46,205 nucleotides of DNA, from assembly GCA_008632985.1 (NCBI GenBank), contig QPGO01000017.1, positions 744,001 to 790,205 on the forward strand. Reading direction: 5' to 3'. Both the position numbers and the translations under genes were made by a program. Within the stretch, counting starts at the first letter, position 1, and each line of letters opens with the position of its first letter. Of this stretch, positions 10,990 to 44,117 are shown piece after piece. The notes under the pieces were generated by a model, which was given only the letters and a program-made list of their open reading frames with translations, did no database searches and was not told where the DNA came from. Source of the stretch: Psammoneis japonica (lineage: Eukaryota).

Positions 10990-11420
10990 CTCGAGTAGGA
11001 GGTAGTAGGTAGAGTAGGGCCTCTCTACTAGCAGCGCATGATATCTATGATAGATGCCGGCCGGATATGCTGCTATTGCTATGCTCTCTACTCTAGAGCT
11101 TAGCTATGCTAACTCTCTCTCTCTAGAGAGAGAGAGTCTAGCTCTAGCTACTTGTACTAGAGAGAGTACCGGTAGAGCTATGCTACTTCATATGCTGCGG
11201 TAGCTACTTCTAGCTAGTTACGACGTACCCACTCATAGAGCTTTGACTCTACTGTACCTTTATGCACTGCTATCTCTAAAGTACAGAGTAATTTACTGCA
11301 GCTTAATTAAGATCCTCTCTACTAGTCTAGAGTAGCTGTAGCCAGCTTTCTCTCTAGCTAGTAGAGAAACCCACTCTACTCTCTTGGAGAGAGCAAGAGA
11401 GTGTTGAAGCAGCCTCTAGT
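10990..11420. repeat. CTAG/TAG/CTA/AGAG-saturated low-complexity intergenic island
   Basis: Dense in ctctagag, tagctag, ctactag and ctctctctctagagagagagag; no ORF. Confidence 0.8.
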
Positions 11421-17949: not shown

Positions 17950-19010
17950 TGGCGCGGTGTGGGGGACAGACGCGCTGTCATGTCGACAGGCGGGTGGGCA
18001 CCCAAGAGGCAGGTGGGGCTGGGTAGGATGGGAAAAAAAAGGAAGTGGGGCAGGGTGGGGAGCGGTGAGGCAAGCATGTAATTTTGTAGAGTAGCGGGCG
18101 AGTTGGTCAGCAAGAGACTTGGCATGAAGTGGTGCAATGGTGCAGCGATGTGATGAGGAGAGAGAGGCAAGTTGGGTCAAAGAAAGGCGCGCTTTTCTGG
18201 GCGGCAGCAGAGGCAGGAAGGATGCCAGCAGGAAAGCAAAGTGTGCAGGCAAATGCTGCATGGGCAGATGGGTGTGAGAAGGAGGTCTTGGAGGTCCAAG
18301 GCAAAGTGGTCATGGCAGTTGACTCACATTGGGAGTCATGGTTGTGCTGAGCTGAACTTCTGTTTGGCAGTCTCTTGGTGTGACGCTGCCCCAGCAAAAG
18401 GGTCTGAGGTGCAGGGGCAGGCAAGCCAGGAGCTTGTGACCCAAAGGCAAAGCTGCAGCAGAAGTGGGGTTGAGTTGGGCGCCGACGTGAGCGAGGTGTT
18501 TGAGAAGCGCAAGTGCCAGGTGAGGTTGTTGGCAGAGGCCAGTGGTGGCGCGCCGCAGAACGCAGAAAGAAGAGTCTGAGCATGCATGTGCCAAAACAGG
18601 GGTCTAACAGTCTGAAAAATGAAGAAGAGGCCACCATCCCACATGCACGTGCCACGCTCACCCACAGCCATGCTCGTCCAGAAAACAAAACCCGGTCTGG
18701 CCGGTGCTTTGAACCACCCCACCCCCCATGGACGAGGAGGACTACACAGAAAAGAGAAGAGAGACACTGCTGCATGCGCTGTGGGGCCCTGTCCAGCACA
18801 GCACATGCTGAAGCACTGTTTCGCACGCTTGGGGTTGAAAATGGGACTGACTTGCATCAAGTGCTGCAGTCCAGCCACCGCCCGCGCCGCCTTTCATCAC
18901 ACGTGTTTTTTTTTGTTCCGGTTTCTACTGGTGGCAGACGCGAAACCCGCGCTTCGCGCTGGCAGCCAACCAGAGCCTCAGATGTCAGATGCTCGCCGCG
19001 CGCCCGCCAA
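17950..19010. mobile_element. Degenerate repeat/TE-like island with extreme TpA depletion
   Basis: Only 2 TpA counted in 18094-18925, with TG/CA enrichment and many overlapping stop-poor ORFs. It lies between the divergent COX10 and Deltex genes. No TE family is recognisable. Confidence 0.5.
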
Positions 19011-19414
19011 CGCAATAACACCCTTCTCTCTTCTCTTTCGATGATGACGTCTACTAGCAACAATCCCTACATGCATAATCGAAGATCAGATATCGCAACT
19101 CCATCACGGTGTCATCCGCGAATCAAATCCAAGCCGCGACTCCCAGTCGCGCTCATCGAAATGAAATTGGGTAGTACTCTGGTACATACTGTAGGGCCTA
19201 ATAATAGCTCTACTTTTAGAGGGAAATATTTATTAGACTGAAGCACGAATCGAAAGATAACCTGAAAACCCCGGTATTCAGAAACTCCACTTTCACTTTT
19301 TATGTACTTCATAACACAGATGCATCGACTACCGTGACAGCAGCTAGCTCTGTATCTAGAGGACACCTTCTCTGCAACTTCATTCCACTGCCGCACCACT
19401 GTGCACCTGCAGCA

Positions 19415-26653: not shown

Positions 26654-27371
26654 TTCGGAAAACCCAGTTCTAACCCAAACCGCTGTCACAGCCTTTTCGA
26701 CTCTCATACAGAGAACAGTTGCAAGACATTGAAAATGGATACGACGACTAAGGCATCGACATGCATTTGTGGACTGGCGGCGGCGGTGCGGCGGGTCGCG
26801 TCATTGAATGTCATTATGTTGGCCGCGCCGCCGCAGTTTTTTCGTCGTACGTCTGTTTTCTGTCTTCGGTCTGCAAGTCGTCCGCAAGCTCTGCGCGAAA
26901 AGAAAATGGACGGCCTTCTTCTTGACGATCCAACAGAACATTTTCTTGACGATCCTGCTGATGACGCTCCCTTCGACCATTGTCTTGCCAATCCTGCTGA
27001 TGATGCTTCTGCTGATTCTTCCAACAATTATCGCCGGACCCCTCCAAGTTTCTCCACCACCCTGATGACCTCGTCCCACCTTCTCTCTGCTGTGGTGCAT
27101 TCCCGCACCCCACCCTTCGACTCTGCTCAGACTCTGCCGCCTTCTCTCTCCATTTCGGCAGCCACTTTGATGACTCCTGCTGCCCCTCGTGTCTCACGCA
27201 CCTCTTCTCTTAAAATCTTTACTTGGCAAAAGATGCATCGTGCTCCCTGTGCCGGCCGGGCCACAGCCACAGCACAACTCAGCACAAACACTGGAAGACA
27301 TCAACCCTGAGCTCAACATGTGGCTCACACAAACAACCCCCCCCCCAATGCTGATGACCACTGTTTTGCTG

Positions 27372-27536
27372 TGTTGACCGGGTGCAGAAGCTGAAAAGTG
27401 AGCACAAGACCCACAACTCAACCCGAGTTGCAAGTGCAAACATGCCACATCATTCACAATGGTCAGCACCTCTTGCATTGCAACATTGTCTGTCTGTCCT
27501 GCAAAAACTGCCTCTGGCCCCAATGTTCTTCTAACA
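27372..27536 (-). repeat. 3' LTR (~165 bp)
   Basis: TGTTGACCGGGTGCAGAAG...AAAAGTGAGCACAAGAC...CCCCAATGTTCTTCTAACA aligns with 29063-29234. Confidence 0.85.
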
Positions 27537-29062
27537 CACTCCTTCACACAAGCCATCATCACCTGATTGGCCTCATGTGCATCATGCACAGGAGGATGAA
27601 CCATGCTGCCCAACGCCACACTTTGACTGCTCTGTTGATTCCCACAGCCCCCACCCCACATCATCCAACTCTGCCAATGAATGATCACTGTCAGGACAAT
27701 CCTTTTTCACATGTCCAACCTTGTTGCATTTCCAGCATTTTGTCTGTTTCTTCTCATTCTGTGCAAAACTTGCACCCTCAGGCTTCTTGTTGGCCCCACA
27801 TGTGTCCAATGGCATGTCTCCAATGCCTCCGCCTCATCCAAACTGAGGCGATTGTCAACTCCCCGTGTGGGTGGCCAGTGCAGGTCTGTCAAGATGTGCC
27901 AACATTTTTTAGTGCCTTTCATTGGCATTGCTGCCAACAACTTGTTTCTGTCTTTGTTCCGGGCATCATCAGCACCCTTGCTGAACCCACCTTCTTTTTT
28001 GGCAATTTTTTCTGGGATGTGCCATGGGGAATTTCCACCACCTCAACAATGCTCATGAGCTGACTGCAGTGGTGATCTTGAAGTGTGCCTCTCTGTCATC
28101 TTGACAAATGAGTGCCAACTGCTTCCAAGCCTCAACTGCCTGGACATGCAAGCATGTCTTCTCATTTGCACAAAACAAGGTTGACTTGAGAATGTCCAAC
28201 AGTGCTGCCATGTCCCTCTCCTTTGCAACTCTTGTGAACTCCATCACTCTTTCAATCTTGTGATGAGTGGCCTTCATGCATTGCACCACAACAATGTCAA
28301 ATGCCCTCGCCTTTTGTGTCTTGTAGATCATGCTCTGTTTTGCACAGTGACTGCATTGCTTGCCCCAGATTGCCCTGTGCTTGCTTCTCCAATGTGGTTT
28401 CTCCTGCTGATGGATCATGCTCTGGCTTCTTTGGTGTGCTCTCTTGTGCCTCAGAGATGCCAGCATCTGCATCTCCAGCCCAAACATTCTTCCAACATGG
28501 TGGCCTGCTTGTCAATCTTCCTCGTGGTTTCCATGTGACCATCTGCCTGTCACCTCGACTCTGCAATGGCATCACACACACACTCCTCCTTTGAATGTTT
28601 TGTGCTTCTGCGCTCAACTGTGTCCTTGCCCATGTTTTCCCAAACCAAATGTTGGAGCATCATGGCTTGCCAGCCATTGTGTGCTTGGCCTTGCCAACAA
28701 ATGCAACCCCACTGCACCCTTTTTCAGCAGACCCTTGACAGCTTCTTCACCAACAGCAAGGCCATCCAGAGATTGTTTCTTTGCTCTCATCCAGCTGGCT
28801 TGTTTGCCACAATTCATTGACACACCAAGACACACCTTTGGATTTCCAATGACTTCCCAGCCAACATTCTTGGATGCCTGATGTCCTTCCAGCCTTCACC
28901 TTTGAACAAAACTGCTCCTTTGAGTGTCATGCCATGACTTTTTGTGGCTTCTGTGTTGGAGCTTCATGGCTTGTCGACTGGCATGCGTTTGGTCTCACCA
29001 ACCCCAAACTCACCGCATGGCTTGCAAAAACACATTCCTGATGCCATCAACTGCTGTTGCCA

Positions 29063-29234
29063 TGTCAACCAGATGCAGAAGCCAAAAAGTGAGCACAAGA
29101 CTCACAACTCAACCTGCAAGTTGTGAACACAACAAACATGCCATGTCACTCACAATCATCGGTGCATCTTGCACTGGCTGCAACATGTCTGTCTGTCCTG
29201 CACAAAAATCACCTCTGACCCCAATGTTCCAACA
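29063..29234 (-). repeat. 5' LTR (~172 bp)
   Basis: TGTCAACCAGATGCAGAAG...AAAAGTGAGCACAAGAC...CCCCAATGTTCCAACA aligns with 27372-27536. Confidence 0.85.
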
Positions 29235-29722
29235 CATTGTTTGTTGTGCGCCGACTTCTCCTGCATTGCACAGTCCAAAAAAAAGTTGGTCGTGGCAGCA
29301 CACCAGAGTTTTTGTGGCTGGCAGGCAACAAGTTTTAGCCAGATGGAGCTGTGTTTTTTTTCGTTGGTTGATGAGAAGAGCTTAATTTGCTCAATGATTG
29401 TTTCTCTTTTCGATTGTTCTTTGTTTGCGTGTCATTCGATCAGAGAGCAGTGCAGTCACCAACATTTGTGCTTGAACGCCTCGAACAGCAAAGGAGGAGG
29501 CGCAACGAGAATTGAGAATAAAGTTTAGGTCAACCACTCCCGTCTTGGGAGGTCTGAGTTCAATCCCAACACGCAACGGTGGAGTTGCGCATCTCGCGCG
29601 ACCGACGGTGCGAGGAAGCGCGATCGACTATTCGCCCCTCTCTTGATGATGGTCGCAAAAAAGTAGAGTAAGACATAAACAACGATTCATTGTCGCGTAT
29701 ACCAACAGCGGCATCGATAGGG

Positions 29723-43621: not shown

Positions 43622-44117
43622 AACTGGGATGGGGAGTAATGCCTCACATAGATGACAGCGTGCAGCCGGAATACAACCCTTTGTGAATCCAGATGATAGT
43701 CTAGCACCTACCCAATTGAATAAATTAGGCAGTCGAAGCTTGGGCGAAGTCCATAACAGTCTCTCGATGATGGATCGAGTGCGCGACCACGTTTCGTCTT
43801 CTCAGACAACGCAATAGGTAGACGGAGGTCAGATGATAGTCTAGCACCTACCCAATTGAATGAATTAGGCGGTCGAAGCGTGGGCAAAGTCCATAACAGT
43901 CTCTCGATGATGGGTCGAGTACGTGACCACGTTTCGTCTTCTCAGGCAACGCAATAGGTAGACGGAGGTCAGATGATAGTCTAGCACCTACCCAATTGAA
44001 TGAATTAGGCAGTCGAAGCTTGGGCGAAGTCCATAACAGTCTCTCGATGATGGATCGAGTGCGTGACCACGTTTCGTCTTCTCAGACAACGCAATAGGTA
44101 GACGGAGATATGCTACA
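43622..44117 (+). repeat. Right direct-repeat copy expanded into a 3 x 140-bp tandem array
   Basis: AGATGATAGTCTAGCACCTACCCAATTGAA starts at 43691, 43831 and 43971; the units are near-identical. Confidence 0.95.

Follow-up and report, generated by a model that had tools for sequence, protein, structure and literature searches.

Fungal repeat-induced point mutation (RIP) and the APOBECs are known examples of targeted hypermutation in which cytosines of invading DNA are deaminated. A corresponding process at adenine has a single report so far, a 2026 preprint on one alga. The preprint describes mutation-accumulation lines of Bigelowiella natans in which new mutations were A>G/T>C changes in 210 of 211 cases in an integrated giant-virus region and in 20 of 20 cases in a virophage region, all of them at TpA (Mettrop et al., bioRxiv 10.64898/2026.01.13.699255). 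The same preprint finds reverse transcriptase and DDE domains over-represented among TpA-poor coding sequences and proposes an ADAT2 homologue, an adenine deaminase, as the agent (bioRxiv 10.64898/2026.01.13.699255). Here, we describe a 46,205-nt stretch of Psammoneis japonica contig QPGO01000017.1 (positions 744,001 to 790,205; hereafter the window), in which a dead gag-only long terminal repeat (LTR) retroelement on the minus strand has lost nearly all of its TpA and most of its CpG dinucleotides. As in B. natans, TpA gives way to TpG/CpA on both strands and locally on foreign or mobile DNA, with TpA depletion accompanied by a gain of CpA and TpG. Unlike in B. natans, the footprint is saturated (TpA observed/expected ratio, o/e, of 0.02, compared with a Rho of 0.45 for the B. 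natans nucleocytoplasmic large DNA virus region), lies on a gag-only LTR retroelement, comes with CpG loss and is a footprint only, with no de novo events. The element is probably a saturated case, on a retrotransposon family and in a second lineage, of the hypermutation just described, coupled with CpG decay.

The likeness to RIP lies in dense transitions that are confined to repeats, affect both strands, leak into the flanks and wreck transposon genes. The direction, however, is the reverse, since RIP converts CpA/TpG to TpA, whereas here TpA is erased, CpA/TpG are enriched and the mutated base is adenine, not cytosine. Full-text literature searches for a TpA signature in diatoms or other protists returned nothing beyond the B. 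natans preprint, whose main text contains no occurrence of 'CpG' and treats neither LTRs nor retrotransposons; the TpA-poor sequences in its supplementary tables S6-S11 may include gag or LTR elements (bioRxiv 10.64898/2026.01.13.699255). The word 'dinucleotide' does not occur in Maumus et al. 2009 (PMC2806351), which has nothing on transitions in transposons.

Within 27222-29335 (2114 bp), TpA occurs three times (at 27532, 27910 and 28324) and CpG 21 times (o/e 0.17), and both TG (n = 247, o/e 2.17) and CA (n = 259, o/e 1.80) are in large excess, so that the original prediction of few TpA, low CpG and high TG/CA in this interval is borne out by the counts. The dinucleotides AA (o/e 1.31) and AT (o/e 0.89) are ordinary, as in the rest of the window, and over the whole window TA and CG have o/e values of 0.57 and 0.96. 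With the rest of the window as baseline, 82.4 TpA and 124.6 CpG would be expected in 2111 bp, giving Poisson probabilities of 1.6e-31 for three or fewer TpA and 1.8e-30 for 21 or fewer CpG; the deficit is real and far beyond chance. At 1012 bp, the longest TpA-free run of the whole window also falls within this tract. The tract edges (27220/27222 and 29332/29336) are sharp, because the closest TpA outside lie at 27220 on the left and 29336 on the right, and they bracket the LTR element. CpG density drops past 27257 and rises again from 29362.

The TpA dinucleotides were lost by mutation and were not scarce from the outset, as seen from the conserved tyrosine columns of gag, the DNA of its relatives, the bookkeeping of pyrimidine-purine (YpR) steps and the differences between the LTRs. 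A HMMER search of 1.84 billion representative proteins with a read-through translation of the gag remnant (P0001, stops written as X) yielded 116 hits at E <= 1e-3, the top relative (P0002) having an E value of 1.4e-37 and 43% identity; P0001 had no matches among proteins of near its own length, and its residues 128-313 had none among shorter proteins. Eighteen intact relatives were aligned, and the columns with Tyr in at least 60% of them (n = 15) were counted. In these columns, the window copy has Tyr once, His (CAY) four times, Cys (TGY) five times, Arg (CGC) once, Phe three times and Ser once, whereas conserved columns other than Tyr are retained in 76 of 131 cases (Fisher P = 1.5e-4). Across the remnant, Tyr accounts for 1 of 311 residues (0.32%) compared with 4.99% (3.19-6.25%) in the 18 relatives, Cys for 4.5% compared with 1.57%, and His for 6.75% compared with 1.67%, in agreement with the earlier claim that the remnant is nearly free of Tyr and carries Cys or His in its place. 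The example offered for that claim, LFCANEKTCLHVQAV, stands in one of its two residues: the second Cys (TGC at 28154) occupies a column in which 83% of the relatives have Tyr, but the first falls on an Asp column and is not derived from Tyr. Adenines not preceded by T are spared, with ordinary AA and AT and with Lys columns retained in 11 of 19 cases, although three Lys>Arg replacements reveal some background A>G change.

At the DNA level, four metagenome loci with gag relatives (L001-L004) were found using a 5-sequence alignment, two of which (L001 and L002) span gag nearly end to end. The original prediction had named equally TpA-poor intact, active family copies as evidence that would speak against it; among the relatives within reach, all four loci have TpA o/e values of 0.47-0.75, with CpG o/e values of 0.63-0.83. 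YpR steps account for 25.1% of all dinucleotides in the element; the corresponding shares are 24.4-24.6% for L001-L003 and 23.6% for the remainder of the window. The share of TG+CA is 24.0% in the element compared with 15.1-16.5% in L001-L003. This corresponds to an excess of ~158-189 TG+CA steps, compared with ~63-91 that CpG loss alone could supply. Deamination of 5-methylcytosine matches one component of the pattern, namely the low CpG, the gain of TG/CA, the change of two of five Arg columns to Cys (TGT) and Gln (CAG), and a TG at 28094 where sister copies have CG. However, it cannot remove TpA, and it explains about half of the TG+CA excess. CpG decay acting alone on an initially TpA-poor element would predict both the CpG loss and TG/CA flips, but with 14 of the 15 Tyr columns no longer Tyr, ordinary TpA levels of 0.47-0.75 in the relatives, an excess about twice the CpG-loss supply and a TA kept by sister copies at 27742, we find this explanation hardly credible.

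In the Tyr columns, A>G on the coding strand (giving Cys) occurs five times and T>C (giving His) four times, and the total TG and CA counts are balanced; both strands are thus affected alike. The two LTRs (27299-27535 and 28996-29240) align over 231 positions with 169 identities, 53 transitions and 9 transversions (z = 39.7, a score reached by 0 of 500 shuffles), and 222 of the 231 positions are the same in purine/pyrimidine terms. The 56 YpR steps common to both LTRs comprise 21 that are CA in both, 16 that are TG in both, 15 that are TG in one and CA in the other, and 4 that are CA in one and CG in the other; the reported tendency of the LTRs to differ as TG versus CA is thereby confirmed. 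Outside YpR steps, transitions are found at 19 of 119 sites. Independent change at this rate predicts ~1.4 double and ~15 single differences in the shared YpR steps, compared with the 15 double and 4 single differences seen. Such double flips are expected if ancestral CpG or TpA steps changed independently in the two LTRs once the element was in place. Because the LTRs of an element are identical at insertion, part of the change post-dates insertion.

Strand symmetry and timing bear directly on editing before integration, in which the RNA (by an ADAR-like enzyme) or the minus-strand cDNA (by an APOBEC-like enzyme) would have been mutated and the edited copy then integrated. Such editing would account for the confinement of the changes to the element, and the clustering of transitions in retroelement copies is a feature shared with ADAR/APOBEC hyperediting. 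ADARs prefer a U on the 5' side, and animals, to which ADARs are to our knowledge confined, are known to carry edited retroelements. Hyperediting acts on RNA or single-stranded cDNA and would mark one strand, whereas the changes here are symmetric, the LTRs differ from one another at 15 of 56 YpR steps, the TpA-free zone enters the flanks, and a second TpA-erased tract in the window lacks retroelement features. We therefore consider editing before integration to be distinctly improbable.

Other family copies were compared using contigs from one public run (X1), which may itself be the source of the window sequence. The family is highly repeated: 820 contigs are at least 80% alike (59 at >=99%, 94 at 95-99%, 258 at 90-95% and 409 below 90%), and the summed depth over the element reaches ~6800 compared with ~60 in the single-copy flanks. 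At 27742 the window has TG and 26 contigs have TA; at 28094 the window has TG and 17 contigs have CG; and at 28133/28134, where the window has CA, T and G are found in 34 and 32 contigs. Between the copies and the window, transitions (A>G 77, T>C 112, C>T 98 and G>A 73) outnumber transversions (11-26 per type). Taken together, the Tyr columns, the relatives, the LTR flips and the TA at 27742 uphold the central claim of the original prediction, that transitions affecting both strands converted the TpA of a repeated mobile element to TpG/CpA, beside CpG decay.

The same contigs also bear on a technical origin of the pattern. Palindromic modified sites (5-methylcytosine at CpG, a modified A at TpA) that are read differently on each strand could be miscalled, with the assembly resolving them randomly to TG or CA. 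However, word-based X1 contigs match the element with no other letters over 27498-28125, 28220-28496, 28470-28744 and 28716-29113; these four pieces have a flank-like depth of 59-74, fitting accurate reads, although X1 may be the source of the window and the match is thus not independent. Frameshifts and transversions, moreover, mark true decay, and an artefact of base calling appears very improbable.

The loss of TpA extends beyond the element itself. Over the 160 bp between the LTR homology and the composition edges on both sides, no TpA is found where 6.2 are expected (P = 0.002), TG+CA number 37 compared with 22.1 expected (P = 0.002), and CpG number 6 compared with ~9.5. The right flank is at single-copy depth (57.8) from 29264 onward. 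The possibility that the LTRs are longer and reach the composition edges was rejected, as the similarity between the outer segments does not exceed that of shuffles: the left flank has no significant similarity to 28900-28995 (z 0.6, reached by 123 of 500 shuffles), and the other comparison gave z 0.1 (191 of 500). The flank signal resembles a spill-over of the TpA process into unique sequence and favours a process acting in place on chromosomal DNA; the changes are otherwise confined to the element. Alternatively, the element may have been nested into an older, already mutated fragment, which would explain the flanks. Further upstream, 26849-27210 (362 bp) has one TpA compared with ~14 expected, with normal CpG (20) and TG/CA not raised. 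This segment is C/T-rich, carries a 39-nt direct repeat (26923-27000), lies within a 268-aa open reading frame (ORF) without a Pfam family and has a depth 2-4 times that of single-copy sequence; its low TpA could be a matter of composition, or the TpA process could extend this far in weaker form.

A second TpA-erased tract was found at 18093-19015, with 3 TpA where 36 are expected (P = 1.9e-12). The tract lies in the intergenic space that separates a UbiA/COX10-like gene from a Deltex-RING gene, with a G-rich first half and a C-rich second half. It has no blastn similarity to the element, no Pfam families in its six ORFs, no retroelement features, and only short repeats at chance level. Because this tract is TpA-poor without an equal loss of CpG, TpA loss and CpG loss are separable. 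This separation weighs against the idea that one dual-activity ADAT2-like deaminase attacked both C at CpG and A at TpA, without a role for 5-methylcytosine. On DNA, the amphioxus enzyme ADAT2 deaminates both C, with a preference for TCG, and A (PMC10354150), and the outer limits of the two losses in the element tract agree within ~40 bp. However, the losses come apart in 18093-19015 (TpA o/e 0.07, CpG o/e 0.58), the flanks lack TpA while their CpG is not clearly reduced, and the A context given for the amphioxus enzyme is GAA, not TA (PMC10354150). The surviving CpGs also show no deficit of TCG, with a 5' T in 12 of 42 strand contexts compared with a background of 31%, and we judge a single dual-activity enzyme quite unlikely. 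The same lack of a TCG shortage among the surviving CpGs disfavours a TCG-specific cytosine deaminase like BjADAT2 as the cause of the CpG loss.

On balance, we think it likely that the integrated element underwent DNA-level TpA>TpG/CpA hypermutation in place, together with CpG decay. Several observations weigh against this account. The relatives that serve as baseline are only ~40% identical and come from environmental assemblies, not from the same genome; the flank signal covers only 160 bp; and CpG decay by itself also yields TG/CA flips. Variant letters of other copies were listed for 40 of 502 variable places, and among the 28 of these that involve multiple contigs, only 27742, 28094 and 28133/28134 fall in YpR steps, while 13 have T in the window and a majority of C outside CpG, so further transitions have accumulated too. 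The element is also old (19 of 119 non-YpR LTR sites differ), such that a slow process and a burst would look alike. Finally, other copies are themselves TpA-poor, with ~3 TpA in ~430 letters in a hand count of loose-end and joint sequence, and part of the signature may therefore be inherited from an already mutated source copy.

In its full form, inheritance would mean that the source copy of a non-autonomous family was mutated once or slowly and then amplified in trans, with no process acting at this locus now. The high repetition of the family, the TpA-poor letters of other copies and the 37 of 56 YpR steps that are the same in both LTRs are all in its favour. However, it leaves unexplained the 15 double flips between LTRs that were identical at insertion, the TA and CG that sister copies keep at 27742 and 28094, the TpA-free zone that runs 67 and 93 bp past the LTR homology and is single-copy on the right side, and a broken gag without sign of selection. 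We consider it unlikely that the signature is mostly inherited, and return below to hypermutation in place.

The structure of the element is that of a dead gag-only LTR retroelement (Table 1). The LTRs are ~243 bp long, and the whole element measures ~1.94 kb (27294-29234). The relative P0002 maps collinearly from 28633 to 27684 in five tblastn pieces and three frames, with at least four frame changes, and a single-frame reading of 27585-28994 meets nine TGA and one TAA. No pol was found between the LTRs, and the 1456-bp internal region, taken up by the leader and gag, leaves no space for it; the element is therefore a gag-only LTR retroelement. A Pfam search of the copy with E values up to 10 found no gag family, only zf-CCHC; 17 of the 18 relatives likewise carry this CCHC zinc knuckle and no other Pfam family. 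The original prediction placed a target-site duplication at TGCTG/CATTG, the left side of which is wrong, as LTR homology begins ~55 bp to the left of TGCTG. Besides the candidate duplication in Table 1, a pair at the composition edges (CTTTA/TTTTA) matches in four of five bases. A 49-nt internal direct repeat (71% identity; 28650-28698 and 28954-29002) lies in the leader and at the 5' LTR border.

Table 1. Coordinates of the erased tracts, their flanks and the parts of the retroelement in the window.
Feature	Position	Strand	Evidence or content
TpA- and CpG-erased tract	27222..29332	.	3 TpA, 21 CpG; TG+CA = 24.0% of dinucleotides
Left flank beyond LTR homology	27222..27288	.	0 TpA, 3 CpG; 67 bp
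Right flank beyond LTR homology	29240..29332	.	0 TpA, 3 CpG; 93 bp
5' LTR	28993..29234	-	LTR alignment; ends read from sequence
3' LTR	27294..27536	-	LTR alignment; ends read from sequence
gag remnant	27684..28633	-	ATG at 28633; tblastn of P0002, hmmsearch with 18-relative profile, translations
CCHC zinc knuckle of gag	27693..27740	-	Pfam PF00098: E 6.3e-06; E 6.4e-05 at residues 419-434 of P0001
Possible polypurine tract	27537..27549	-	Purine-rich, directly upstream of 3' LTR; putative, read from sequence
Candidate target-site duplication CACTG	27289..27293	.	At LTR edge; partner CATTG; weak, 4/5 bases match
Candidate target-site duplication CATTG	29235..29239	.	At LTR edge; partner CACTG; weak, 4/5 bases match
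Second TpA-erased tract	18093..19015	.	923 bp, 3 TpA (o/e 0.07), CpG o/e 0.58, TG 1.64, CA 1.59

The Copia label initially given to the element is not established, as it has no pol and a Copia-type gag Pfam family was found neither in the copy nor in any of the 18 relatives. A predicted structure of P0002, built from the 18-sequence alignment with a mean pLDDT of 76.7, was compared with known folds. VIA-align ranked the Drosophila Copia capsid first (8vvw_A, Z 10.4, 177 aligned, root-mean-square deviation 13.2), followed by PEG10, PNMA2, Arc and the Ty1 capsid C-terminal domain (CA-CTD; Z 7.5-9.0), and Foldseek gave no match at E <= 0.001, with all E values above 0.1 and retroelement or retroviral capsids at the top of the ranking. 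The model aligns with retroelement capsids, in keeping with a gag of capsid fold and zinc knuckle; the fold ranking is suggestive of Copia and no more than a hint. Short elements of comparable design, the terminal-repeat retrotransposons with GAG domain (TR-GAG), have been described in plants. The present element resembles TR-GAG in consisting only of LTRs and a gag ORF without pol, and differs in that its gag family has no Pfam gag model, only zf-CCHC. The intact gag relatives likewise lack any Pfam gag model. P0002, P0118-P0127 and L001-L004 lie on contigs of 1.1-4.6 kb (most 1.2-1.7 kb) with little beyond a gag ORF of ~340 aa. Among viral contigs, nine loci match over the knuckle or a C-terminal stretch only, and none is a full-length relative. 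The gag relatives may represent an undescribed gag-only lineage of aquatic protists.

As a plausible sequence of events under hypermutation in place, a short LTR retroelement with gag alone, one of a multi-copy family, would have inserted between two host genes and then undergone near-saturating transitions at both self-complementary pyrimidine-purine dinucleotides. CpG would have decayed to TpG/CpA through 5-methylcytosine deamination in a methylated transposon, as expected from established knowledge, and TpA would have been converted to TpG/CpA by A>G changes at adenines after T, equally on both strands. The latter step may be a DNA-level, TpA-specific deamination of adenine to hypoxanthine, or an equivalent lesion read as G. 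The TpA process appears to be directed at silenced or foreign DNA and would spill 70-100 bp into the unique flanks. A TadA/ADAT2-like deaminase would be the most plausible agent: in the natural tRNA substrate of these enzymes, A34 follows the invariant U33, which is a 'UA' context. The chemistry, the enzyme, any targeting signal (repeat, chromatin or small RNA) and a role in defence are inferred. More tentatively, and with somewhat less confidence than we attach to hypermutation in place, we propose that a RIP-like mutator of opposite chemistry may exist outside chlorarachniophytes, in which chromatin- or repeat-directed deamination of DNA adenine at TpA would be saturating on transposons, separate from CpG decay, and leak ~100 bp into the flanks.

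The genomic setting differs from that of B. natans, for which the genome statistics in PMC12730881 give 7.8 introns per gene, 159-bp exons and 45% GC. The host here is intron-poor and its window has 48.7% GC, with 15 uninterrupted ORFs of at least 250 aa, among them complete genes in a single exon that encode a nucleolar GTPase (619 aa), a DEAD/DEAH helicase (1034 aa) and a UbiA/COX10-type prenyltransferase (432 aa). Two further features of the window were observed. The region 11000-11400 has the opposite bias, with 58 TpA in 500 bp (o/e 1.54), CpG 0.48, CpA 0.53 and TpG 0.83; the sequence there is intergenic, of low complexity and rich in CTAG/TAGC, and on paper its bias runs in a RIP-like direction. 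A tandem repeat at 43690-44107 (140-bp unit, 3.0 copies, 94% matches) lies directly upstream of the nucleolar GTPase gene.

As a probable second lineage for this kind of hypermutation, the locus would show that the process is peculiar neither to one species nor to giant-virus inserts, and that it can kill transposons outright. Its footprint, with TpA near zero and TpG/CpA doubled, can be searched for in any genome, and the locus would provide a natural setting in which to seek a DNA adenine deaminase with strict TpA specificity. If the RIP-like mutator that we tentatively propose is real, the way in which the CpG and TpA footprints separate between the element, on the one hand, and the flanks and second tract, on the other, would suggest two layers of targeting, and TpA erasure would be a widespread genome-defence footprint of protists that can be scored from sequence alone.

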